Part shown: positions 7,066-63,889 of the stretch, in pieces
Layout: the number at the start of each line of letters is the position of its first letter
Position numbering within the stretch: the stretch's first letter is position 1
Origin: an uncultured Methanosarcinales archaeon
Lineage (GTDB): Archaea; Nanobdellota; Nanobdellia; Woesearchaeales; SKGA01
Assembly (NCBI GenBank): GCA_964430665.1
Contig: CAYSFC010000001.1
Span: 361 to 64,360, forward strand
Length of the DNA: 64,000 nucleotides
Direction of reading: 5' to 3'
Program-made: the position numbers and the translations under genes
Notes under the pieces: generated by a model
What the model saw: the letters and a program-made list of their open reading frames with translations, nothing else
What the model was told of the DNA's origin: nothing
Database searches by the model: none

Positions 7066-7608
7066 TTAATTTTCAGGCTTAACTTCAGTTTCTACAGATT
7101 TCTGAGCTTCAACTTTTTGCTTTTCAAGCTTTGGTTTTGTTTCAGTTTTCTGTTCTTCATCTATTTCTTCCTGTTTTACATCTCCTTCAGGAGTTCTAGC
7201 TACACCTTTTTTAATTTCGTGTGCAACAGGTTTCTCTTCTGATTTCTCTTCACTTTCTGCAGATTTGCTGTTAGAAACTTTTGATTGAAGTTTTTCCTTT
7301 AAGTTTTGAGGTTCTGCTGATTCTTCAATTTGTTTGAAATCAACATATTTGTGACCTGCAAGTTCTACTCTTACAATACCTTCTTTATCTTTTGTTGCAA
7401 TAACTTTAACTTTTGCAGGAGGATTTTGTATTCCATGTCTCCACAAGAAATCATTTAATTTACTTCCTATTTTCACATTATCTGATTTCATGTTTTTAAC
7501 TAAAAATTCTCTTAAAACTCTAATAGCTTTATGAGTTCTTTTATAACGTGGAGTATTTTGGAAACCTCTTCTAAGCGGAATTATATATTCTCTTTCTATG
7601 TCTGTCAT
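7066..7608 (-). CDS. rpl31e: ribosomal protein L31e with K/E-rich C-terminal extension
   Basis: REYIIPLRRGF...KRTHKAIRVLREF matches eL31 N-terminus. Confidence 0.8.
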   Translation of the reverse strand: MTDIEREYIIPLRRGFQNTPRYKRTHKAIRVLREFLVKNMKSDNVKIGSKLNDFLWRHGIQNPPAKVKVIATKDKEGIVRVELAGHKYVDFKQIEESAEPQNLKEKLQSKVSNSKSAESEEKSEEKPVAHEIKKGVARTPEGDVKQEEIDEEQKTETKPKLEKQKVEAQKSVETEVKPEN

Positions 7609-7620
7609 TTAAATCACCAT

Positions 7621-7794
7621 TTAAGCTTTGGTCTTTGTTCTTTTCCAAGATCTCTTTACTTCTGTGTGTTGAGATGGATGAACTTTTTTACCTGCACCAT
7701 GAATTCTAGGAATTATCCAAAATGGAGCCCACTTTGTTTGTTTTCCAAGTTTAGCTAATCTTCCTTTTCTACTAGGATGTTTATTTGTAGCCAT
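7621..7794 (-). CDS. rpl39e: ribosomal protein L39e (57 aa; absent from ORF track)
   Basis: manual translation MATNKHPSRKGRLAKLGKQTKWAPFWIIPRIHGAGKKVHPSQHTEVKRSWKRTKTKA; lies between S19e and L31e as in the conserved archaeal order. Confidence 0.75.
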   Translation of the reverse strand: MATNKHPSRKGRLAKLGKQTKWAPFWIIPRIHGAGKKVHPSQHTEVKRSWKRTKTKA

Positions 7795-7795
7795 C

Positions 7796-8392
7796 TTAAT
7801 CAGCCTCTGGTTTATCAGTTTTCTGGCTTTCAGCTTTTACTTTCGGCTCAGTGTTTACAGTTTCCTGTTTCTTAGCAGGTGTTTCCGCTTTGTCAGTTTT
7901 ACTTTCAACAACTTTCTTTTCTTCCTTAGAAACCTCTTTTTTTACAGGTTTTTTTTCTGCTTTTTTCTCCACAGATTTTGTTGATAAAATTTGCTTAGCA
8001 ACATTCATCATTAAAGAAACTCCTTTAGGAGTTGCAATTCTTCCTTTTCGGTTAGCAAAAGTGTGTTGTTTTATTAATTCTGCTTTCTCCAATTGTTGTA
8101 ATATTGTTCGAATGATTTTTCCGGAAGCTTCTCGGAATGCATCTGGTCTCATTCCTCTATTTTTTCTTCCACCATATCGAGTTCTTAATTTACTTACTCC
8201 AACTGGACCTAATTTGTGTGTTACTCTTAGTATTGAAGCTGCCCTTATATACCACCAATCTGGATTTTTAGGCATTGTTTCTCTATGAACACCAGTTTTG
8301 ACAAATTTTGCCCATTCTGGCATTTCAATTTGATTCTTCAATTCTTGAGCAACTTTTAGCACAAGCTCTTGTTGAGATACATCATATATCAA
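7796..8392 (-). CDS. rps19e: ribosomal protein S19e with K/E-rich C-terminal tail
   Basis: PEWAKFVKTG...DWWYIRAASILR...GGRKNRG matches eS19. Confidence 0.8.
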   Translation of the reverse strand: MIYDVSQQELVLKVAQELKNQIEMPEWAKFVKTGVHRETMPKNPDWWYIRAASILRVTHKLGPVGVSKLRTRYGGRKNRGMRPDAFREASGKIIRTILQQLEKAELIKQHTFANRKGRIATPKGVSLMMNVAKQILSTKSVEKKAEKKPVKKEVSKEEKKVVESKTDKAETPAKKQETVNTEPKVKAESQKTDKPEAD

Positions 8393-23006: not shown

Positions 23007-23891
23007 ATGTGGTACAAAGCATATGGTTATTCTCAAAACCCTTTTGAAATGAATCCTTTAAAGGAGAAAACAAACTTAATAGGGTATGAAAAAGAATTAA
23101 ATGATACAATATATCATATCTCTAAAGGATCTATTGTTTTTATAGAATCTATGAGAGGAAATGGAAGAACAAAATTTCTAAAAGCAGTTATTGACAATTT
23201 TACAGGAAAAATAATTTATGTTGATGCTGAGAAATTGAAGAAAAATTTAGATATAGAAAATCTTCTTGCGAAGAAAAATGGAAAAATTTTCTCTAAATTA
23301 CCTGATAACATGATTTTAATTATAGATAATGCAGATGAATTATCTAATGTTAATTATGAAAGATTGAAATATTTTTTTGATAAAAATAATTTAAGATCGA
23401 TTGTTTTTGCAGGAAATAATTTCAAGAAATCAAAATTACCTGAAAGTGTAAAACATAGAATTGGCGATAATATTATTTCTTTAAATGAAATAGCGAAAGA
23501 TGAATTATTTAAAATTTTCATAAATAAATTAGAAACTAATAAAGAGGAATCCTTACTTGACAAAGAGACTCTTGAAAAAGTATATATTCTTTCAAATAAA
23601 AATATAAAAAAAACAATTAAAACTTTAAATTTAATGGCTGAACAAATGGCTGAACATCAAGATGATAAGTTAAGATTTGAATATTTATCTGATGTTGAAC
23701 AAATTGATGAAGAAGATTTAGATATTTCTATGATTGACAAGGATGGTAATGAAATAGTGAAGATTGGAGAGTATTATAGAAATCCTGCTAAAGACATATT
23801 TTGTAGTAATTGTGGAGCAATTGTTAGTTTGGATGATACTTCTTGTCCAGAATGTTTAAAAGAATTTGAAGTAGAAGAGGAGGTTCAATAA
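23007..23891 (+). CDS. ExeA/GspA-like AAA (AAA_22) ATPase paralog with degenerate Walker A and C-terminal Zn ribbon
   Basis: N-terminal YGYSQNPF...LIGYEKEL matches the ExeA-type leader; P-loop position reads GNGRTKF; Walker-B-like ILIIDNADE; C-terminal CSNCG...CPEC. Confidence 0.45.
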   Translation: MWYKAYGYSQNPFEMNPLKEKTNLIGYEKELNDTIYHISKGSIVFIESMRGNGRTKFLKAVIDNFTGKIIYVDAEKLKKNLDIENLLAKKNGKIFSKLPDNMILIIDNADELSNVNYERLKYFFDKNNLRSIVFAGNNFKKSKLPESVKHRIGDNIISLNEIAKDELFKIFINKLETNKEESLLDKETLEKVYILSNKNIKKTIKTLNLMAEQMAEHQDDKLRFEYLSDVEQIDEEDLDISMIDKDGNEIVKIGEYYRNPAKDIFCSNCGAIVSLDDTSCPECLKEFEVEEEVQ

Positions 23892-23892
23892 A

Positions 23893-24597
23893 ATGGAAAA
23901 TTGGTATCATAAATTAGGATATGAAGAAAATCCTTTCACAATAAAACCTGCTTTTTTTGATGATGAAGTAATTGGTTATGATAAAGAAATTGATGATTTA
24001 GTAAAAAAACTTTCAAGTAATAAAATTTGTTTTCTTGAAGGTGAATTTGGTAAAGGTAAATCTTCAATAATAACATATATCATAAATGAGTTTGTTGGTA
24101 AAAGTAAAATAATTCATATTAGTAGGAATCGTTCAGATAGAGCACTAAATTATTCTAAACTTTTAATAGAGGCAAACAAAGGTTTTGGAAAATTATTAGG
24201 TTTTAAGGCTAAAAAAACAATTCTTATAGTTGATGAAGTTGGAAAAATAAATAAAAAAGATTGTGATCAAATTCTTAATTTATATAAAGATGGTTACATT
24301 AGATCAATTTTATTTGCAGATGTATCTTTAGATAAATCTAAAATTAGCCCTGAATTAAAAAAGAAAATTGGAAAAAACATAGTTCGTTTAAAAGATTTGG
24401 GTGTAAAAGATATTGTTGATTTAACATATAGTAGATTAGAGAATAAAGAATTAATTTCTGAAGCTTTGATAAAAAAAATATATGATAAATCAAAAAACAA
24501 TACTCGAAACTTTTTAAGTAAAATCGAATTAGTGTTTAAAAAAGCTTTCGATGAAGGTAAGGATAAGGTGACTGAAGAAGATTTATCTGTCCTTTAA
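23893..24597 (+). CDS. ExeA/GspA-like AAA (AAA_22) ATPase
   Basis: LGYEENPF...VIGYDKEI leader, Walker A GEFGKGKSS, Walker B ILIVDEVG, AAA+ lid-like C-terminus; 1-nt gap from the upstream paralog. Confidence 0.5.
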   Translation: MENWYHKLGYEENPFTIKPAFFDDEVIGYDKEIDDLVKKLSSNKICFLEGEFGKGKSSIITYIINEFVGKSKIIHISRNRSDRALNYSKLLIEANKGFGKLLGFKAKKTILIVDEVGKINKKDCDQILNLYKDGYIRSILFADVSLDKSKISPELKKKIGKNIVRLKDLGVKDIVDLTYSRLENKELISEALIKKIYDKSKNNTRNFLSKIELVFKKAFDEGKDKVTEEDLSVL

Positions 24598-24659: not shown

Positions 24660-25046
24660 ATGACTGATGAAAATAAAGTTCAAATAATTATTGGATTAGT
24701 GGAACCTATTAAAATTATATCTTCAACTGATTCAAAAACTTATTTAGCTAGAATTGATACAGGGGCTCTTCGAAGTTCTATTGATAAAAAAATAGCTCAG
24801 GAGTTTAAGTTAGGACCTGTTATTAGAGAAGTTATTGTGAAGAATGCTCAAGGAAAAAGTAAACGTCCAGTTGTTAAAGTAAACATTGAAATGGCTAAAC
24901 AAAATTTTGATGGCGAATTTACAATTGCAGACAGATCTCATATGAAGTTTCCAATATTAATTGGACGAGATATACTAAATAAAGGTTTTCTAATAGATGC
25001 AACTAAAGGTTTTGAGGGTGAAAATAATGAAAGCAGCAGTAATTAG
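24660..25046 (+). CDS. retropepsin-like RimK-associated putative protease (Zn_protease/DUF785 family)
   Basis: IDTGA (D-T-G) aspartyl motif and ILIGRDIL flap-like motif; immediately upstream of, and overlapping, the RimK gene. Confidence 0.55.
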   Translation: MTDENKVQIIIGLVEPIKIISSTDSKTYLARIDTGALRSSIDKKIAQEFKLGPVIREVIVKNAQGKSKRPVVKVNIEMAKQNFDGEFTIADRSHMKFPILIGRDILNKGFLIDATKGFEGENNESSSN

Positions 25047-26106
25047 TTTAGGAAGTGTTTCAAGTAAATGGATTGTAGAAGAGATGAAAAAATTATTTGA
25101 AGAAGTAGATCAAATTGATATTAGAAATTTAGAAATAAACTTTAGTGGTAAAGGTGCAGAAATATTATATTTGGGAAAACCATTTGGAAAATATGATTGT
25201 GTTCATACATTAGGTTCATTCAGATATGCTAATTTACTTAATGCATTGACATTACTTTTAGATTCGGATGTTTTTAGAGTTACAAAAGCAACTGCATATA
25301 ATGTGGCGCACGATAAATTATTGACGCAACTAGCATTACAGAAAAACAATATTCCTATGCCTAGAACCTATGTTGCAGCAACCACTGATGCAGCAAGATC
25401 GATATTTAAACAAATGAATTATCCTATAATTATGAAATTCCCACATGGAACTCAAGGTAAGGGAGTATTAGTTGCAGAATCATTTCCTTCTGCCTCATCC
25501 ATAATGGATGCTTTATCTTATCTTAGACAACCATTCATAATACAAGAATTCATAGATACTGGTGGAAAAGATTTACGTGCAATAGTTATTGGTGACGAAG
25601 TTATTGCAGCATATGAGAGAACTGCAGCAAAGAATGAAATAAGATCTAACATTCATCAAGGTGGAGAAGGAAAAGCAATTGAGATTGATGATCACACTAA
25701 AGAATTAGCTGTAAAGGCTGCAAAAGCTGTTGGAACTAAAATTTGTGGAGTAGATATTCTTATGAGTTCACACAAAGGTCCTTTAGTTTTAGAGGTTAAT
25801 ATTAGTCCAGGACTTCAAGGAGTAACTAAATATACTGGAATTAATGTTGCAGAAAAAATAGCAAATTATTTGTTTAAAGAAGCATCTGAGAAAAAAGAAA
25901 AAGGAATGGATGAAGGTATGAAAGATATTTTATTAGATTTAGATAAAAAAGAATGTGAAAAAGCACATTTAATAACTGAATTAGATTTTAGAGGACGAAG
26001 AGTTTTACTTTCAGAAGCAATAACTCAAGGAGCGAAACTTAAAGAAAATTCAGAATATGAAGTTATAGTAAAACAAAATGAAGTTATAATTAAAAAATTT
26101 GACTAA
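25027..26106 (+). CDS. RimK-family ATP-grasp ligase (alpha-L-glutamate ligase-like) with C-terminal extension
   Basis: ATP-grasp pattern; start moved to MKAAVISLGS at 25027, which overlaps the protease ORF by 20 nt. Confidence 0.75.
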   Translation: MKAAVISLGSVSSKWIVEEMKKLFEEVDQIDIRNLEINFSGKGAEILYLGKPFGKYDCVHTLGSFRYANLLNALTLLLDSDVFRVTKATAYNVAHDKLLTQLALQKNNIPMPRTYVAATTDAARSIFKQMNYPIIMKFPHGTQGKGVLVAESFPSASSIMDALSYLRQPFIIQEFIDTGGKDLRAIVIGDEVIAAYERTAAKNEIRSNIHQGGEGKAIEIDDHTKELAVKAAKAVGTKICGVDILMSSHKGPLVLEVNISPGLQGVTKYTGINVAEKIANYLFKEASEKKEKGMDEGMKDILLDLDKKECEKAHLITELDFRGRRVLLSEAITQGAKLKENSEYEVIVKQNEVIIKKFD

Positions 26107-36759: not shown

Positions 36760-38361
36760 TTAGATTTGCTTAATAAATTCTTCAACTTTTTCGAGAATTA
36801 TTTTTTTTGCAGCAGGAATAAACTTAATACTTCCTGCAACATCATGACCGCCTCCAGAAATTCTAGCAAAGGAAACATTTTCTTTCAGGAATTGGACTAA
36901 TTTATTACCATCAAAACATTTTTCAGATTGGTAAACTCTATATACAATCATTGAATCACTATATGCTAAAGTAATAAATTTATTTGTAGTTGTTTCATGC
37001 TTATTATGAACAAATCCAGTAATCTTACCAATTGAGAAAAAATCGTTCCAAAGAGTTAATTTATCTGCATCTAATAGAATTATTTGGAATTTACCCCAAG
37101 ATTTTTCTTCTTTAAACTTTTCGGTTGCTAAAAATAATTCTTTTTGTGTTTCTTCCAAGTAATTTTCATATAAATTTACCAAATCTTTTTGTTTCTGAGA
37201 TGGTTTTTTCAATAAATCTTTTATTGGCAACTCACCATAAGCATATTTGGTGAAAAATACTTCAAGATTTACCATATTTCCTAATTTTTGTAAATAATCT
37301 AAAGGTTCATTGGAAAGTTGAACGAATTTTTCAAAAGGTTCTCCTTGACATTTATCTGCAACAGCACCTAAGGTTGCAGAGAAAACATCGTGATGAACTT
37401 CTTCAGTTAAATAATAAGCCAATCTAAAAGATAACATTGATGTGGAGAATTCTTTAGAAAGACCTACTAAATGAGGGTTTGAATGAGCTAATACTAATTC
37501 ACAAGTTTGAGATTTACCGTGTTCATCTAATTTTCCAGGATCGTGATGATCTACGACGACAAAGTCCGCTCCAAATATTTTTGCTTTTTTTATGGCTAAG
37601 ATATCTTCACATGTACTTCCATTATCAATTATTATTATTAGAGGAGTTTTGTTTTCAACTCTATCTAAATTTGATTGAAAAAAAGAAATATCTTTTGTAG
37701 CATCACTTATTTCATAATAAGGTGTTTTAGAAGCATTTCTGGTATAATAATTGTGTATAAATTTTAAATCTGGTTGTCTTTGTTTTATTTTATATAAAAT
37801 TGCATTTTCCAAAATATATGCACTTGCATAACCATCACAATCAGCATGATGGGACAATATTATGGGTCTTTTTTGATTTATTGCATTTAATATTTCATCA
37901 GAAACTTTTTTTAAGGAAGGTTCTAATTTTCTCCAATCTTGATGTTCAAATATATCGTTTTTATTTAAGTTTTTAACTTTTTCTATTACATTTTCTTGAA
38001 TATTTTTTTCTACTTTCTTTACATCTACTATTTGACCTTGTAATCTTCCTTCATACATTGTTTTTTTGAAAGAAAATGTAACTACACAACCTTGTTCTAT
38101 TTCAGGATATGCGCTCTGACCAGGTAAGTATTTGACTAACTGAAGTGTTTGATTTCCATCATCAACAGTAAATATAGTAACATTCTGTAATCTTACAACT
38201 TGACTAACTTTAGCTTTTAATGTATAAATAACATTTTCATCTTTATCATCCAATATATCTTTTATTTTTAACATTTCTTTGAATTTCATTTTAACCTTCT
38301 TTACATTATGTACACGAGTATTTAAATTTTTGTAAATGTTTTTCGGAATTAGTTTTTCCAA
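36760..38361 (-). CDS. DHH/DHHA1-family phosphoesterase with N-terminal OB-fold-like region (RecJ-like nuclease or nanoRNase candidate)
   Basis: DHH motif VVVDHHD, DHHA1 GGGH motif (ARISGGGHDVAG). Confidence 0.7.
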   Translation of the reverse strand: MEKLIPKNIYKNLNTRVHNVKKVKMKFKEMLKIKDILDDKDENVIYTLKAKVSQVVRLQNVTIFTVDDGNQTLQLVKYLPGQSAYPEIEQGCVVTFSFKKTMYEGRLQGQIVDVKKVEKNIQENVIEKVKNLNKNDIFEHQDWRKLEPSLKKVSDEILNAINQKRPIILSHHADCDGYASAYILENAILYKIKQRQPDLKFIHNYYTRNASKTPYYEISDATKDISFFQSNLDRVENKTPLIIIIDNGSTCEDILAIKKAKIFGADFVVVDHHDPGKLDEHGKSQTCELVLAHSNPHLVGLSKEFSTSMLSFRLAYYLTEEVHHDVFSATLGAVADKCQGEPFEKFVQLSNEPLDYLQKLGNMVNLEVFFTKYAYGELPIKDLLKKPSQKQKDLVNLYENYLEETQKELFLATEKFKEEKSWGKFQIILLDADKLTLWNDFFSIGKITGFVHNKHETTTNKFITLAYSDSMIVYRVYQSEKCFDGNKLVQFLKENVSFARISGGGHDVAGSIKFIPAAKKIILEKVEEFIKQI

Positions 38362-38612
38362 GAAGAATGACCAAAATGAATTATTAGATCTATGCCTAAT
38401 TTTTCAACGTCTGAAGGTATATCGCAAGCTCCAAAATTACTTCCAGCCCAAATCCATACTTCAACATCAATTTTACTTTCTATATCTTCTTTTAAGTTTT
38501 GGGCGAGAGGCTTTAAACCATCAGGTAATTGAATTAAGACATTTTTAGAACTATTTAGTTTAATTGTGTCGATAACTTTATCTAATTCAAAATTATAATC
38601 TTTGTAATTCAT
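38349..38612 (-). pseudogene. dph2: truncated diphthamide synthesis protein Dph2 (N-terminal 87 aa only)
   Basis: VLIQLPDGLKPLA...GSNFGACDIPSDVEKLGIDLIIHFGHSS matches the Dph2 N-terminal domain; in-frame stop after 87 aa; downstream space is taken by the DHH gene in another frame. Confidence 0.55.
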
Positions 38613-38650: not shown

Positions 38651-39556
38651 TTATTCTTTCTTTTCTTCGTCTTCAGAATCTTCTTCAGTTTCTTCTGTGT
38701 CGTCTTCTTCACTGATATCTACAGATTCTTCTTCATCTTCAAGAATTTTGTTAGATTTTTCTTTTGGTTCTTCTTCTATTTCTTCTTCATCTTGATCATC
38801 ATCAAAATCTTCAGTATCTTTATCAAAATCTTCAGAATTCAAATCATCAATATCGTCTGCTTGAACATATGCATTTTCTTCTGCTTTTTTATCTTTCCAC
38901 TTCTGAGCTTCTTTTTTATCCAATTTTCTCTTTTTAACTGGTTCAGAGACAACTTCTTTATCTGTTACAACTATTTTTGTATTTTCAACCAATTTTGCCA
39001 TTCTAATATCTACGCTTTTGATTGGAAAAATCTTTTTTAGAGAATCTTTTATAATTTTCTGTAATTTTCCTTCAACTATTGCTTGTACAGTTCCTTCAAC
39101 ATTTGTTTTTACAACGTATTCTCTGATGATTTTTCTTGCTTCTAATCTACATGCAGACTGAATTAATTTAGTTGTGTGATTAACAGTCACTATAAGAGGT
39201 TTAATTCTTAAAATTCTTTTATCTGAAGTTTTTGATATGAATGAATCTGCAACTTTATCTCTTCCACGTCTAACTAATCTTTTTAATGCTGAATTAATCA
39301 TATTATATCCAACAACTTCAGTTTTACCTTTTCCATCTTCAACACCAATAACTTTAAATTGAATATTTGCGTTTTGTTTTCGCATATTTTTAGTTATTGT
39401 TGATAAATTAGCTGTTAAATATTTTCCATTGAGATCGCTTGTTTCAAAAACATGTGATTCTCCTAATAAAGCTTCACCAAACATTGCAGGCGCGTAAATT
39501 GGAGCCCATTTTTTCTTTCCTTTTTTAATAATTGTTTTTTTCTTTTTAACTGCCAT
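38651..39556 (-). CDS. rps3ae: ribosomal protein S3Ae (eS1) with long acidic C-terminal tail
   Basis: KKWAPIYAPAMF N-terminal signature. Confidence 0.8.
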   Translation of the reverse strand: MAVKKKKTIIKKGKKKWAPIYAPAMFGEALLGESHVFETSDLNGKYLTANLSTITKNMRKQNANIQFKVIGVEDGKGKTEVVGYNMINSALKRLVRRGRDKVADSFISKTSDKRILRIKPLIVTVNHTTKLIQSACRLEARKIIREYVVKTNVEGTVQAIVEGKLQKIIKDSLKKIFPIKSVDIRMAKLVENTKIVVTDKEVVSEPVKKRKLDKKEAQKWKDKKAEENAYVQADDIDDLNSEDFDKDTEDFDDDQDEEEIEEEPKEKSNKILEDEEESVDISEEDDTEETEEDSEDEEKKE

Positions 39557-40190: not shown

Positions 40191-40308
40191 CAAAATAAAA
40201 TGTGAGCCTACGGGGATTCAACCGAACGAATTTGTAAGTGAGCGTTGTGCTGGAATAAATATGACAGCATGTTCAAATCCCAAAATAAAATGTGAGCCTA
40301 CGGGGATT
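40191..40308. repeat. 28-bp perfect direct repeat (CAAAATAAAATGTGAGCCTACGGGGATT) at 40191-40218 and 40281-40308 = duplicated tRNA-Ile 3' end plus flank, enclosing scrambled tRNA-derived fragments
   Basis: seen directly; the intervening 62 bp contains inverted copies of tRNA-Ile D/anticodon/intron segments. Confidence 0.6.
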
Positions 40309-40402
40309 TGAACCCCGGACCACTGGCTCTCTTCGAGCGACATTGCTAAAACGCAATGCTGTCATATAAGACCAGCACTCTACCAGACTAAGCTATAGGC
40401 TC
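40293..40402 (-). tRNA. tRNA-Ile (anticodon TAT) with 36-nt intron at canonical 37/38 position (intron 40329-40364)
   Basis: acceptor GAGCCUA/UAGGCUC, T-arm CGGGG-TTCAAAT-CCCCG, anticodon stem CTGGT/GCCAG, loop C-T-TAT-A then intron, A38; intron carries an internal hairpin. Confidence 0.6.
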
Positions 40403-40407
40403 AGATA

Positions 40408-40519
40408 TGCACCGACCGGGAATCGAACCCGGGCCGAAGCCTCTTTGCAAGATTGAAGATTATTAAAATTTTCTTCACATCTATGGCAAGGCCCCATTGT
40501 ACCATTCAACCACCGGTGC
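40408..40519 (-). tRNA. tRNA-Gly (anticodon GCC) with 41-nt intron at 37/38 (intron 40443-40483)
   Basis: acceptor GCACCGG/TCGGTGC, T-arm CCGGG-TTCGATT-CCCGG, anticodon stem GGGCC/GGCTT (two G-U), loop TT-GCC-A; intron hairpin GAAGA...TCTTC. Confidence 0.55.
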
Positions 40520-52360: not shown

Positions 52361-52907
52361 AATAACCATTTTTTTCCAAATAGTCTAAAATTTTCAAAAA
52401 TTGTTTTTTGAGTATTGGAAACTCTTCAAAATATTTAAGTTTTTTTTCAATCAAAAATTCTTTGGTGTATCCTTTCCAATCTTCTTTATAATTTATTTCA
52501 TGTATTGTAGGGTCTAGTACTTCGATAGCTCTTGCAAATTTAGCTTCTAAAGTTATACATTCTTCAAATTCTTTAAAGACATTACTTAATTTTGATGCCA
52601 AAGGTTCTGGAAGTTTCTTGCCTAAATTTATTGCAGCTAAAGATTCTTTTTGTTTTTGATTTTCTATTTTTATTTCTGGATGTAAAGGAAAATCTCCAGT
52701 TTCTATTTCAACAATATCGTGATACATTATTAATTCGTACACTTTCAATTTGTCTAATTTTTGATCTATTTTATCGAAGAAAAAATCAGCCAACATCAAA
52801 GAACTCCAAGTGTGTTCTGCAGAACTTTCTTTTCTACTTTCAACAGAGTTTAGTCTGTAAACAGATTTTAATTTATTTAATATTGTAAATTTTAATATAT
52901 CTTCCAT
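52350..52907 (-). CDS. HD-domain phosphohydrolase (YfbR-like 5'-deoxynucleotidase family)
   Basis: SAEHTWS...YHDIVEIETGD H...HD...D metal motif. Confidence 0.7.
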   Translation of the reverse strand: MEDILKFTILNKLKSVYRLNSVESRKESSAEHTWSSLMLADFFFDKIDQKLDKLKVYELIMYHDIVEIETGDFPLHPEIKIENQKQKESLAAINLGKKLPEPLASKLSNVFKEFEECITLEAKFARAIEVLDPTIHEINYKEDWKGYTKEFLIEKKLKYFEEFPILKKQFLKILDYLEKNGYFNQ

Positions 52908-58504: not shown

Positions 58505-58975
58505 ATGATTGGGAAAATTACAATATTAAATAGTAAAGATAGAAAAATTCTTCTTCAAACATTAAATGAAATTTACGGAATAGAAGAATTGCCTGAATTA
58601 ACTTATTTTTATCAAAATAAAAAAGAAAAATTATATGTAGTGAATAAAGAAGTTTTTGAATATGATTTACATGAAATAAGAACTAATGCGATGGGTTTGT
58701 ACATTGGTACATTTATGGTTGATGGTTTTAGATTCTCAATAGATGGTTCACAAATATTTGGAAAATTAGCTAAGAAAAATATTTTTGATGTTAGTGAGAA
58801 AGAAAGAAATGAGTGGATTAAAGGAGAAGATTTATTTTGTGAAGAATTTGAAAATGAATATGTTTTAATTAAGTGTGGTGAAGATTTCTTGTGTTCTGCA
58901 AAAGTAAAAGATGGCATTATTAAAAATCATGTTTCTAAATCAAGAAAACAAAAAAAAGTTTTTGGTGAAGATTAA
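58505..58975 (+). CDS. hypothetical protein, weakly Nip7/UPF0113-like RNA-binding
   Basis: weak resemblance only. Confidence 0.3.
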   Translation: MIGKITILNSKDRKILLQTLNEIYGIEELPELTYFYQNKKEKLYVVNKEVFEYDLHEIRTNAMGLYIGTFMVDGFRFSIDGSQIFGKLAKKNIFDVSEKERNEWIKGEDLFCEEFENEYVLIKCGEDFLCSAKVKDGIIKNHVSKSRKQKKVFGED

Positions 58976-60012
58976 ACAACATTTCCGAAAAGAGCATTTA
59001 ATATTAACATGAATATTAAATAAAAGAATACAGAACTAAATGCAAATAAAGGTATGTATTTTAGTCCATTTCTAATATCTCCTTTTTCAATTATAGATAT
59101 AATCATAGAAGCACCTATTGAAATTATGGACAATGCCGCAACAGAAAATTGTCTAAAAACATTTGTATCAATTTCACTATTGAAAGACAAACCTATATCT
59201 AATGTTGCTGATGACAAAGAACCGGCCAAAGAAGAAGTAAAACCAAGTATTATAGTTAAAAGTTGATATGCCAGCGCGAACAAAGCAGGACTTATAACAA
59301 CCACAATACTTCCAATAAAAATTATATATGAAACTGTTGCTGCAGCCATTTCGGCTTTCAAAGATTTTGTTTTTTTCAAATTGTCAATTATTTTATCAAT
59401 AACATCAACAATTCTACCTCCTGAAGATAGTTCTCCAACAATTAATTGTATATTTCTTCTAAGATTAGGTGAATTATATTTATTTCCAAACTCCATAAGA
59501 GCTTCTCCTAAATCATTACCAGTCATTACTTTTTTTGAAACTAAAGCCATTTCTTGAGCCAATATTCCAAATTCAGGCCTTATTGCTGCCCAAAGAGATT
59601 GTTCTATAGATAATCCTCCTTTAATGTTTGCAGAAACTAATACTAAAAAATCAGGTAATTCGTCTTCTATCTTACTTATTCTTTTGAAAATTTTAACGTT
59701 TAAATTCAAGTAAAATCCAATTATTGTTAAAGTTATTATTAGGCCTTGGATGAGTGCCCAACTGAGAAAAGATAAGATAAAAACTGCGAACAAACCTTTT
59801 CCTTGAATTAAAGGACCATAAACAAACCCTACAAAAATAAAGTAAGTGAGTGCTGCAGACAAAATAAATAAAATTCCAAAAAAAGAATATGGTACTGCAT
59901 TTATACCTGCTTTAGATAAATATCTTCTCAAGTCAGATCGTATATCTTTGTTGAAAAGAGTCTCAGGTACAAACGCTTTTCCAAATTCTTCTAATATTGA
60001 TTTTTGTGACAT
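58972..60012 (-). CDS. type II secretion system F-family (TadC/FlaJ-like) polytopic membrane protein
   Basis: TM topology and position directly downstream of the FlaI/TadA-like ATPase. Confidence 0.55.
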   Translation of the reverse strand: MSQKSILEEFGKAFVPETLFNKDIRSDLRRYLSKAGINAVPYSFFGILFILSAALTYFIFVGFVYGPLIQGKGLFAVFILSFLSWALIQGLIITLTIIGFYLNLNVKIFKRISKIEDELPDFLVLVSANIKGGLSIEQSLWAAIRPEFGILAQEMALVSKKVMTGNDLGEALMEFGNKYNSPNLRRNIQLIVGELSSGGRIVDVIDKIIDNLKKTKSLKAEMAAATVSYIIFIGSIVVVISPALFALAYQLLTIILGFTSSLAGSLSSATLDIGLSFNSEIDTNVFRQFSVAALSIISIGASMIISIIEKGDIRNGLKYIPLFAFSSVFFYLIFMLILNALFGNVV

Positions 60013-60013
60013 T

Positions 60014-60823
60014 TTAAACTTCCATATCTGGCCTTGCCGATTTAAAAAATGTTATAAACATAAATTGAATAAAAATTAATACCATTAATATAATTAAAAA
60101 AACCATAAAATCCATGCTAATAGACAAAAGAGATGCAACAACTACAAATAAAGTCATACCTAAAGAAGGAACAATTATTGCCAAAAGCATATAAAACATT
60201 GTTAATGAAGATAATTTTTTACCATATCTCATAATTTCAACTAATTGAGCTTCAGCAATTTCGTCAACAGTAGCTTGTAAAAATTGTGTAACATCAATAC
60301 CTATTTTAAGTGCATTTGTTATTTGAAATAAAATTTGTTTTAAGTGTCTTGAAGGACAAAAACGAGTTGCTTTATCTAAAGATTCTTCGAGAGTTGAACC
60401 CAACTCTACATCTCGAATTATTTCTCCAAAATAACTTGAAGCCACACCATAATTTTTGGAAACATCTTCGATAGCACCTATTAAAGGATCACCACCACTT
60501 AATTTAATTAATAAAAACCTTCCCGCAAATAAAACTCCTCGATCTATTTCTTTGGCCTTTCTTGAAATGATTACATCTATTTTTTTAATGTTCATATTAT
60601 AGAAAAATAATCCTGTTAGTATACCTACCAAAAGCGGCCAACCTATTTTGAAATTATCTTTTCCCATAAAAAATACTGTTAAGACTGCAAAGAAAAATCC
60701 AAACATAACTCCGTTAAAAATTGATTTTTTTATATATTCTTTAGGTTTTATCTTTAACTTTGCAATTATTAATTTAACTTTCAATTCAGGATGTTTAGAA
60801 AGCAATAAATTGATTAAAGACAT
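60014..60823 (-). CDS. type II secretion system F-family (TadB/FlaJ-like) polytopic membrane protein
   Basis: as above; start overlaps the ATPase stop. Confidence 0.55.
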   Translation of the reverse strand: MSLINLLLSKHPELKVKLIIAKLKIKPKEYIKKSIFNGVMFGFFFAVLTVFFMGKDNFKIGWPLLVGILTGLFFYNMNIKKIDVIISRKAKEIDRGVLFAGRFLLIKLSGGDPLIGAIEDVSKNYGVASSYFGEIIRDVELGSTLEESLDKATRFCPSRHLKQILFQITNALKIGIDVTQFLQATVDEIAEAQLVEIMRYGKKLSSLTMFYMLLAIIVPSLGMTLFVVVASLLSISMDFMVFLIILMVLIFIQFMFITFFKSARPDMEV

Positions 60824-62325
60824 TAAACCCCTCCATGTTTGTTTAGATAGTCTTCAAAAGTTTCTGTATTTAAAATTCCTAAATAATATTGTGACATAAT
60901 TAAACCAATTGTTTCAATATCATAATATTTTTTATCTAACATCCATTCAAGAATTCTTTCCTTATCCATAAGATCTTCCTGAATTTGTTTCTCAGTCATA
61001 CCACTATAAAGTCTTAATCTTTTGTAGACAACTTGAGATTCATTTAAATCTTGTAAAATATCTTCATTAACATTTAACTGTTGTATAACATTGGGATCTC
61101 CATTTGGAAGAATTTCGGCTATTTGTAAAGTTCTTCTTTTACCTGAACGTCTATTCCTGTTTTGTACGACAACTAAACCAATCGATCCAACCATAGGTTT
61201 AGGAATTTCAATTGGAGGGTTTGTTAAACGAACTATTGTTTCTTCAGCATTATTTGCGTGAATGGTTGCATATACTGAATGACCTGTATGCATGGCTTCA
61301 AACAATACTCTTGCTTCTTCTTTACGTCTAATTTCTCCAACAATTATTCTATCAGGTCTCATACGTAATGAATTTACAAGTAAATCAAGCATTGAAACTC
61401 CCCCTTTTCCTTCAGGGTTTGGTAATCTGGTTGCCATTGGAACCCAATGTAATTTTTTAGGTAGAACTAATTCTCGAGTATCTTCTATTGAAATGAGTCT
61501 TTGATTTGGAGGAAAGAAATTTGCAAGAACGTTGAGCATAGAAGTTTTACCAGAACCAGTACCTCCTGCGATAAGTATTGAAAATTCATTTTGTATTGCA
61601 AACCAAATAAATGCTGCAGATTGTAATGATATTGTTCCTGCTTCAATAAATTTAGTTATTGTCCACGGATCTTTTGCGAACTTCCTTATAGTGATTGTAT
61701 TTCCTTTTGATGAAATAGGATTTATAGTTGCATTAACCCTATCTCCAGATTTTAAGTGAGCGTCCATTAAAGGAGCAAGATTAGTAATTTCTTTACCAAC
61801 ATCTCGACCAATCATTGAAGCGAAATGTCTAATTCTTGATTCAGTTACAACCTTTATATTTGTGTCAACCCAGCCAAATTTTTTATGATATGCTCTAACA
61901 GGTTCTTTATGATTGTTAATAACTATTTCTTCTAAATTTTCGTCTTCGAGAAGAACGTCAACTTTACCAAAACCTAAATTTTCTTCAATTAAATAGTTAA
62001 TTAGCATGTCTTTAGTTGCATCTTCGATTTTAGGAAAATATTTTGAGATTAATCCACTTATTTCATAACGGAATTTTTTTTGTATTTCACTAAAATCATT
62101 TGATTCAAACTTTTCAACAGATTCTAAATCAACTTTCTCAATAAATTCTTGCCTTATTTTTTCTAAAATTAATTTTGTTGTGTCACTAATATTTGTTATT
62201 TCAATTAAATAATCAGGAACTGGTTTTTCTCTATCTTGAACTATTTGTATTTCTACAATTATTGAATTTACATGAATTGAATATTTGTCAAGCAATTTTG
62301 TTCCTTCTTTATTTTCTGATACCAT
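60823..62325 (-). CDS. type IV pilus/archaellum assembly ATPase (FlaI/TadA/VirB11 family)
   Basis: Walker A GGTGSGKTS, Asp box, Walker B, His box of secretion ATPases. Confidence 0.8.
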   Translation of the reverse strand: MVSENKEGTKLLDKYSIHVNSIIVEIQIVQDREKPVPDYLIEITNISDTTKLILEKIRQEFIEKVDLESVEKFESNDFSEIQKKFRYEISGLISKYFPKIEDATKDMLINYLIEENLGFGKVDVLLEDENLEEIVINNHKEPVRAYHKKFGWVDTNIKVVTESRIRHFASMIGRDVGKEITNLAPLMDAHLKSGDRVNATINPISSKGNTITIRKFAKDPWTITKFIEAGTISLQSAAFIWFAIQNEFSILIAGGTGSGKTSMLNVLANFFPPNQRLISIEDTRELVLPKKLHWVPMATRLPNPEGKGGVSMLDLLVNSLRMRPDRIIVGEIRRKEEARVLFEAMHTGHSVYATIHANNAEETIVRLTNPPIEIPKPMVGSIGLVVVQNRNRRSGKRRTLQIAEILPNGDPNVIQQLNVNEDILQDLNESQVVYKRLRLYSGMTEKQIQEDLMDKERILEWMLDKKYYDIETIGLIMSQYYLGILNTETFEDYLNKHGGV

Positions 62326-62326
62326 T

Positions 62327-63889
62327 TTACAACTCTAAAGCTTCTTTTAATCTTATTTTTATTGAATTATCCAAAGGATGTTTTTTAGCAAGAGGGACTA
62401 ATAATTTTAAGGCAGACAATTTATCTCCGTTTTTTATTGCATAAATTGCATCAAAATATTCTTTTGAAAGAGGATTTTTATTAATTTTGTGTTTTTTCTC
62501 AGGAACATCTTTAACTTCATTGTTGAAGTAATTTGTTTTTTCTTCAAATTCAATTTTTTTAGCAATTTTAGACATGTAATCTGCAACTTGTTTAAGTGTT
62601 TTTATTATTGATTTCTTTTGTTGTTCAGATTTTTTTATTTTTTTTGTCAATTCTTTTATTATATTAAAAACTTTACGAGCTTTTAGATAATCTTTATTTT
62701 TTAAGGATGACTTTAAAATAGGCATTTGTTTATCTATTTCGTAAATTATAAATGAATCTCCTTGAGATATTAGATTTATTTTTTTGAGTTCTGGAATTTT
62801 ACTAATGTCTGTAGGAATTGGTTCAGAAAACTCTTTTATTTCCTTTAAATTTTTAAATTTTTCATCATTTTTTTCTTTTAAAATATTTTGTATTTCTTTA
62901 TCAATTAAATCTTCAACTTGAGAAGGATTTAAACCTTTATTTAAATTTTCTTTGTATTCGGGATTGGAGTCTAAGTTTGCTAATTTTTTCGATAATATTT
63001 GAGTTAAATTGGTAAATAATTGTTTATTTTCATATAGTATTTGTTTTCTTAACTCTTCTATATTTTTTATTTGTTGTTCTTTTTGAATTTTTTCTGTTTT
63101 CGAATAACTATTCTTATTTACGCCAGTTAATTCTTCTTCTAATTTCTTTTGTTTTTCTTCTAACTCTTGTTTTAATTTATTTAAATCAACATCATTTTGA
63201 GAATTTGAAATGTTAGAGAATTTTTTCGAAAGAGAGTTAGATAATTCTTCGAATTGTTTTTTATTTTCTTCAAGAACTTTATCTCTTAATACTTTAAAGT
63301 GTTTTTCTTGTTCTTCTTCTTGTTTTCTTTTCATTTCTAAATAAACTTTTTCACTTTCTTTTTCTAGCTGTTGTTTAAATTGTAATAGATATCGTTCTCG
63401 TTTTTGTTCTTTATCTAGATCTTCAAAATCTAGTGGAGCATTCATAAAAGGTAAAATAAAACCTCCTCCTCTTGAGCCACCACTCATCTGATCTATATTC
63501 GCGTTTTGTATATGCATTGATGCAGTTTTTAATGTTTGTTTAAATGATTCTTCTTCAGTTTCTTGTTCTTCAGTATCATTTATCCCATTTTTAAGTTCAT
63601 AATCTTTTATTTTATTTAAGATATTTTTTATTACTAAATCTAGTGAAGCTCTTCTTGGACTTTTTCTAGCTAATTTACCATATATACTTTTGACTTTTTT
63701 GTAAATTGTTTTTGCTTTGGATAAATCATCATCATTTAAAGCAATATCTACCTCTGTTTCATAATCAACGTCTCCAAATAATGCGGATTCATCATCACGA
63801 ATTATTGGTTTGAAAGTCTTTGTAACAGACATTCGAGAATCTAAGAAATTTAATATGTCTTCTTCCAAAAAATCATGTAAGGATTTCAT
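62327..63889 (-). CDS. long coiled-coil K/E-rich protein, first gene of the pilus-assembly cluster
   Basis: heptad-rich low-complexity sequence; 2-nt spacing to the ATPase. Confidence 0.4.
   Translation of the reverse strand: MKSLHDFLEEDILNFLDSRMSVTKTFKPIIRDDESALFGDVDYETEVDIALNDDDLSKAKTIYKKVKSIYGKLARKSPRRASLDLVIKNILNKIKDYELKNGINDTEEQETEEESFKQTLKTASMHIQNANIDQMSGGSRGGGFILPFMNAPLDFEDLDKEQKRERYLLQFKQQLEKESEKVYLEMKRKQEEEQEKHFKVLRDKVLEENKKQFEELSNSLSKKFSNISNSQNDVDLNKLKQELEEKQKKLEEELTGVNKNSYSKTEKIQKEQQIKNIEELRKQILYENKQLFTNLTQILSKKLANLDSNPEYKENLNKGLNPSQVEDLIDKEIQNILKEKNDEKFKNLKEIKEFSEPIPTDISKIPELKKINLISQGDSFIIYEIDKQMPILKSSLKNKDYLKARKVFNIIKELTKKIKKSEQQKKSIIKTLKQVADYMSKIAKKIEFEEKTNYFNNEVKDVPEKKHKINKNPLSKEYFDAIYAIKNGDKLSALKLLVPLAKKHPLDNSIKIRLKEALEL

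Follow-up and report, generated by a model that had tools for sequence, protein, structure and literature searches.

A stand-alone Dph2 domain 1 of 87 residues in a DPANN-type archaeal scaffold, very probably the small subunit of a two-gene enzyme

Within a 64-kb stretch of DNA (hereafter the window; positions 361–64,360 of a 100,107-bp scaffold), we identified an 87-aa open reading frame (ORF) that corresponds to the complete domain 1 of Dph2 and to nothing beyond it, i.e. to domain 1 of 2-(3-amino-3-carboxypropyl)histidine synthase encoded as a polypeptide of its own. Judging from sequence comparisons, this N-terminal-domain (NTD) gene is very probably the one for the small subunit of a Dph2 made from two genes, with the C-terminal partner (CTD) located elsewhere in the genome. 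As a split Dph1/2 in DPANN archaea was reported by Narrowe et al. 2018 (Genome Biol Evol; PMC6143161), the feature is already known: the window holds an instance of a published gene organization that is ordinary for this lineage, and what looks like a "truncated" essential gene is a normal feature of DPANN genomes. The features of the window referred to in the text are collected in Table 1.

Table 1. Positions, in window coordinates, of the dph2 NTD gene, its motifs, its neighbours and other features of the window
Feature	Position	Strand	Basis or remark
dph2 NTD gene, 87 aa	38349..38612	−	PF01866, TIGR00322, alignment with Dph2 structures
LPDGLK motif, residues 29–34	38511..38528	−	start of the Dph1/Dph2 family profile
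Cys63 codon, GACD motif	38424..38426	−	gca on the + strand, TGC on the − strand
GHS motif, residues 81–83	38364..38372	−	last conserved element of domain 1
Ribosomal protein S3Ae gene	38651..39556	−	PF01015, E=2.9e-34; 38 nt upstream of the NTD gene, same strand
OB-fold and DHH (HAN-like/RecJ-like) nuclease gene, 509 aa	36760..38289	−	family matches, public gene call; context, not part of Dph2
Longer form of the DHH ORF, 533 aa	36760..38361	−	TTG start at 38361
ORF of 99 aa	36326–36625	−	also predicted by gene callers in the public record
First long tRNA match	40293–40402	−	Rfam, 57.9 bits
Second long tRNA match	40408–40519	−	Rfam, 45.4 bits
S19e and L31e genes	7066–8392		no CTD beside them
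First ORF with AAA/STAND-NTPase match	23007–24597	+	weak match
Second ORF with AAA/STAND-NTPase match	24660–26106	+	weak match
Cluster with T2SSE- and T2SSF-type genes	58972–63889	−	

The ORF opens with an ATG and contains the motifs VLIQLPDGL, GACD and LIIHFGHSS. It scored above the curated cut-offs of two profiles and is thus a member of the Dph1/Dph2 family: Pfam PF01866 was matched over profile positions 1–56 of 302 (E=7e-13; 49.1 bits against a cut-off of 33.2), and TIGR00322 over positions 1–81 of 320 (E=2.6e-21; 76.4 bits against a cut-off of 35). TIGR03682, the equivalog profile for full-length archaeal Dph2, gave 64.2 bits, below its cut-off of 202.8, and aligned at positions 3–65 of 308 only. 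A phmmer search of the PDB aligned residues 5–84 of the protein with residues 6–85 of the Dph2 structures 6q2d and 6bxm. The AlphaFold2 model, computed from an alignment of 40 relatives, had a mean pLDDT of 86.3 and displayed alternating helix and strand elements, so that the predicted fold is that of Dph2 domain 1, a parallel beta-sheet flanked by helices. When this model was compared with the PDB using Foldseek, the best 15 matches were all archaeal Dph2 (77–84 aligned columns; TM-scores normalised to the query, i.e. the 87-aa model, of 0.70–0.77).

Three cysteines hold the cluster in Pyrococcus horikoshii Dph2 (Cys59, Cys163 and Cys287). Cys63 of the 87-aa protein is the equivalent of Cys59 within the common GACD motif, and is on this alignment the predicted domain-1 ligand of the [4Fe-4S] cluster; it is also the only one of the three that the ORF carries. 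Upstream of it, the LPDGLK motif aligns with the PEGL motif of solved Dph2. The ORF ends four residues past GHS, just before the segment that opens domain 2 in unsplit Dph2. Profile matches, PDB alignment, cysteine and model matches thus confirm a complete domain 1 and bear out the preliminary description of this DNA, which had recognized a Dph2 N-terminal domain of 87 aa with the first Fe-S cysteine.

That description had also called the gene reduced to a stub, a wording that implies decay; instead, it belongs to a large and conserved family of stand-alone NTDs. A database search with the 87-aa protein retrieved 364 clusters, the best 120 of which were all 80–115 aa long and 49–70% identical to it; named sources among these best 120 of the 364 clusters were Woesearchaeota, Nanoarchaeia and Nanoarchaeota. 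In the GTDB species-genome collection (one genome per species), at least 573 matches encode a relative of the NTD, and the labels of the 80 matches that were fetched read mostly Woesearchaeota or Nanoarchaeia. These labels, together with a G+C content of 28%, archaeal ribosomal proteins and two long tRNA matches, point to a DPANN host of the Woesearchaeota/Nanoarchaeia type for the window.

Six-frame translations of the loci first fetched placed the stop codon 0–32 residues past the end of the family profile in 94 of 94 NTD ORFs, and each of the 116 NTD-bearing loci examined had an intact ORF in which the catalytic motifs and the position of the stop were conserved. Twelve residues were invariant among 40 relatives (P30, D31, G32, L33, K34, W55, G61, C63, D64, P66, G81 and H82), and nine of them (G32, K34, W55, G61, C63, D64, P66, G81 and H82) reached at least 97% conservation among 80 unique stand-alone NTDs. 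The NTD thus exists as a gene of its own, ends at a conserved point and is kept among relatives, as is characteristic of a split Dph1/2; from this pattern of conservation, the stand-alone form appears to be under selection.

Because the ORF corresponds to just a quarter of a normal Dph2 and is followed by an unrelated gene, a truncation, frameshift or misassembly at 38340–38370 might be thought to have cut a full-length dph2. However, an independent Logan assembly of run SRR5112540 (L002) encodes an identical 87-aa protein between the same neighbours, the stop falls at the same place in the 94 loci, which come from different assemblies and species, conservation at 49–70% identity proceeds without disruptions, and no CTD-like sequence follows downstream in any frame. 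Neither a disrupted frame, nor a truncated form lacking conservation, nor a nearby remnant was found, as would be typical of a pseudogene. Decay or misassembly cannot give such a pattern of conserved length, stop and motifs that recurs in an independent assembly, and we consider a pseudogene or assembly artefact effectively refuted.

Complementary to the stand-alone NTDs, we found CTD-only proteins of 217–267 aa that match PF01866 and cover Dph2 domains 2–3. Two CTD profile searches yielded thousands of matches, and the best 120 of each were all between 204 and 267 aa in length. In alignments with P. horikoshii Dph2, the cysteines of their invariant LGC and ACPR motifs fall on Cys163 and Cys287, and the proteins open at a segment aligned with VPTIFVPAF of this enzyme, which is the segment after GHS. 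From this starting point and from the lengths of the CTD-only proteins, it follows that the enzyme is cut at the boundary between domains 1 and 2 and that the pieces are whole domains. In four fetched loci, an ORF of ~220–245 aa directly after the NTD gene matched the rest of P. horikoshii Dph2.

The two genes occur both side by side and apart. Adjacent NTD and CTD genes were found in seven loci (L013, L017, L028, L058, L088, L095, the latter a 1.3-Mb contig, and L096). The gaps of the adjacent pairs range from −7 to +57 nt, with a few of 400–1100 nt, and each of the three possible relative frames is represented, such that the adjacent state cannot be attributed to a single sequencing frameshift. 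In two JGI loci, L146 (Ga0210057_1000177) and L175 (Ga0310122_10005816), the CTD start codon comes right after the NTD stop codon and in frame with it, so that these pairs are one in-frame stop away from an unsplit gene. At L088, we noticed the order NTD, CTD and then a shorter DHH/DHHA1 gene.

The window is of the dispersed type. Among the 80 genome loci whose NTDs resemble the window's most closely, 76 showed no CTD within up to 10 kb, and searches within 10 kb of the CTD genes P0167 (L097) and P0203 (L098) found no NTD in any frame. Scanning JGI metagenomes with a profile of CTDs of the P0167/P0203 type revealed 44 loci without and 21 with an NTD, besides 15 that were too short to tell. A scan of a viral contig collection for both halves found nothing. 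Among the NTD and CTD matches listed, each a small fraction of its family, pairing of contigs by equal length recovered adjacent pairs only. Among 34 stand-alone CTD loci (L097, L098 and others of L100–L159), a homologue of ribosomal protein S7 was present within ~2 kb in 17, and an eIF-1A homologue nearby in 12. With NTD genes near rps3ae and CTD genes near rps7 or the eIF-1A gene, dispersed halves often lie beside translation-related genes. Four loci (L117, L118, L123 and L124, some of them apparently near-duplicates) have S19e and L31e after the CTD, and the window encodes both proteins as well; we dismissed the pair as a marker of an empty CTD site, the synteny being too weak to interpret.

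The partner gene was looked for in the first 74 kb of the scaffold. In the 64-kb window itself, phmmer and tblastn searches with P. horikoshii Dph2 matched the 87-aa ORF only and no CTD, nor did a hidden Markov model of 120 CTD-only proteins detect one in six-frame translations. The genes called at scaffold positions 52,686–74,248, i.e. up to 10 kb past the window end, included none with PF01866. When the window ORFs were scanned against Pfam, no dph5, dph6 or aEF2 was found among them. Elsewhere, on contigs of Woesearchaeota/Nanoarchaeia, a 709-aa protein with glutamine amidotransferase and asparagine synthase domains, encoded within 10 kb of the NTD gene (19663–20261 in L003; 17272–19401 in L005), recorded matches to the Dph6-family profiles PF01902 and PF28410, which may be cross-matches within the PP-loop superfamily.

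In one related assembly, the two halves could tentatively be linked. In GCA_016932315.1, the NTD P0108 (MBN2053073.1) lies on contig 19 (51,112 bp) in the order S3Ae, NTD, topoisomerase I, with a gene order around it much like that of the window. The CTD P0275 (MBN2052807.1; 219 aa), located on a 71,119-bp contig, precedes MBN2053073.1 by 266 accession numbers, the source name of both is Candidatus Woesearchaeota archaeon, and the assembly has 18 contigs ahead of contig 19. From the accession series, the shared name and these 18 earlier contigs, we infer that the two proteins belong to the same assembly. On the strength of this one accession-number pair, the two halves in GCA_016932315.1 appear to be present on separate contigs; linking NTDs and CTDs through the NCBI accession series gave no pair for the first 10 CTDs and this one pair in a second batch.

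Could the conserved 87-aa protein be what is left of the enzyme, domains 2–3 and diphthamide having been lost in the lineage and the remaining domain re-purposed, e.g. as a small Fe-S/SAM-related adaptor or in a function tied to its ribosomal-protein and DHH-nuclease neighbours? Such a scenario would fit the negative CTD searches in 74 kb of scaffold and around 76 of the 80 NTD loci, the recurrent synteny of the NTD with S3Ae and the DHH gene, and the diphthamide loss documented in other archaea by Narrowe et al. 2018 (PMC6143161). However, a lone cysteine cannot hold a [4Fe-4S] cluster, yet Cys63 is kept, together with the family motifs, at the frequency given above. Moreover, the same taxa also carry a counterpart class of stand-alone CTD genes, a genome of the window's type appears to possess both halves, and both halves of Dph1/2 have been reported in DPANN genomes (PMC6143161). 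We therefore regard re-purposing as improbable, and loss of the diphthamide pathway in the window's organism as unlikely. Of the two alternatives raised in the preliminary description, i.e. loss of the modification or a gene split in two, the second is favoured by the NTD and CTD families and by the published record (PMC6143161; PMC6349945), whereas the rare, lineage-specific diphthamide loss that it invoked found no support.

A further possibility is that the genome also encodes a normal full-length Dph2 and that the 87-aa ORF is an extra, accessory or regulatory copy of domain 1. Against this speak the partner in the related GCA_016932315.1, which is a 219-aa CTD-only protein rather than a full-length one, and the 204–267-aa range that encompassed the best 120 matches of both CTD profile searches; an extra paralogue is accordingly a quite remote prospect, remoter than re-purposing.

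A small subunit of a two-gene Dph2 thus is the reading we favour strongly. Dph2 is the radical-SAM-type enzyme that initiates diphthamide synthesis on aEF2. In the window's organism, the 87-aa protein would supply domain 1 and Cys63, and a protein of ~220 aa, presumably encoded elsewhere in the genome, would contribute domains 2–3 with the other two cysteines. The two halves may reassemble non-covalently around the [4Fe-4S] cluster, and the joint site may then cleave SAM and transfer its 3-amino-3-carboxypropyl group to the aEF2 histidine. Our literature search found no study on the reassembly or physical association of split Dph2 halves; with its three domains spread over two chains, the split enzyme lends itself naturally to studying how such an Fe-S site comes back together.

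The NTD gene has recurrent neighbours. The S3Ae gene lies upstream of the NTD also in L003, L005, L094 and L179 and in ~20 further loci. At 301 aa, the window's S3Ae is longer than its counterparts in these four loci (234–256 aa), its C-terminal tail containing an extra ~100 residues that are strongly acidic and rich in Glu and Asp.

Downstream of the NTD gene, the preliminary description had correctly named a 533-aa DHH protein: the ORF exists as listed, contains an N-terminal OB fold and matched the model of HAN-like (Hef-associated) nucleases (E=1.9e-69, with a score well below the curated cut-off). The 13-nt overlap between the two genes that it had reported, and on which it had built an argument against a frameshift, arises from an upstream TTG extension of the DHH ORF. 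Public gene calls begin this gene at the ATG at 38289, giving a protein of 509 aa, and the equivalent MKFK... is also where its homologues in L023 and L027 begin; NTD and DHH genes are thus 59 nt apart with no overlap, and the argument rested on a start codon that is probably wrong. In 16 other loci examined, a gene of the DHH-nuclease family likewise follows directly downstream of the NTD on the same strand (L016, L023, L025, L026, L027, L029, L031, L047, L048, L050, L059, L063, L065, L066, L074 and L076). No functional link between NTD and DHH genes was evident among the loci examined; their juxtaposition may go back to an older gene order that the CTD has since left.

Other parts of the window deserve brief mention. 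The two adjacent tRNA matches span 110–112 nt, far more than a normal tRNA, and are absent from the ARAGORN output; they probably represent intron-containing archaeal tRNA genes. The product of the 99-aa ORF has no Pfam match, an N-terminal hydrophobic segment that ends in a cysteine (...ATACSS) and a Cys-rich C-terminal third. One of the two adjacent ORFs with AAA/STAND-NTPase matches also has a zinc ribbon, and the pair is followed by a retropepsin-like zinc-protease ORF that overlaps a gene for a RimK-type ATP-grasp ligase. Towards the window end lies a cluster that resembles an assembly locus for a type IV pilus or an archaellum-like structure; it encodes a T2SSE-type ATPase, two membrane proteins of the T2SSF type and a 520-aa protein for which Pfam has no match.

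For genome annotation, the split has a practical side. PF01866/Dph2 serves as a single-copy marker of archaeal genome completeness, and split copies mimic duplications or fragments; the resulting warning that the gene is unsuitable for this purpose is a point of Narrowe et al. 2018 (PMC6143161). Our descriptive additions are small, i.e. the break between domains 1 and 2, the adjacent and dispersed arrangements, and the different translation-gene neighbours of each half, and these details could aid annotation pipelines in naming both subunits.

[quoted passage not shown] Carriers listed in the Dombrowski et al. 2019 review are Parvarchaeota, Pacearchaeota, Woesearchaeota and Altiarchaeota (PMC6349945), and the window ORF belongs to an NTD family whose members are labelled Woesearchaeota or Nanoarchaeia. 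Break position and gene linkage are not described in the available portions of these two papers. What our analysis contributes beyond them is a break at the domain 1/2 boundary and the existence of adjacent as well as dispersed arrangements, with the NTD gene of the dispersed type often following rps3ae and the CTD gene often being near rps7 and the eIF-1A gene.

In unsplit archaeal Dph2, three similar domains per chain each give one cysteine to a single [4Fe-4S] cluster. With the solved representatives of P. horikoshii (3LZD/6BXK), Ca. Methanoperedens (6BXM) and M. smithii (6Q2D), the window ORF shares 36–41% identity, the domain 1 fold, the GACD cysteine and the PEGL/PDGL and GHS motifs. These enzymes are, however, single chains of 327–342 aa that unite three domains and three cluster cysteines, whereas the window ORF comprises the first domain and its cysteine only. 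The eukaryotic Dph1–Dph2 heterodimer, too, consists of two different polypeptides of one family; yet its subunits are paralogues that both have the full set of three domains, in contrast to the one three-domain unit in two pieces considered here. Other split-gene enzymes of DPANN archaea, different as the enzymes themselves are, follow the same scheme of an essential information-processing enzyme encoded by two separately located genes in a small genome, and for some of these split-gene proteins reassembly has been studied experimentally.
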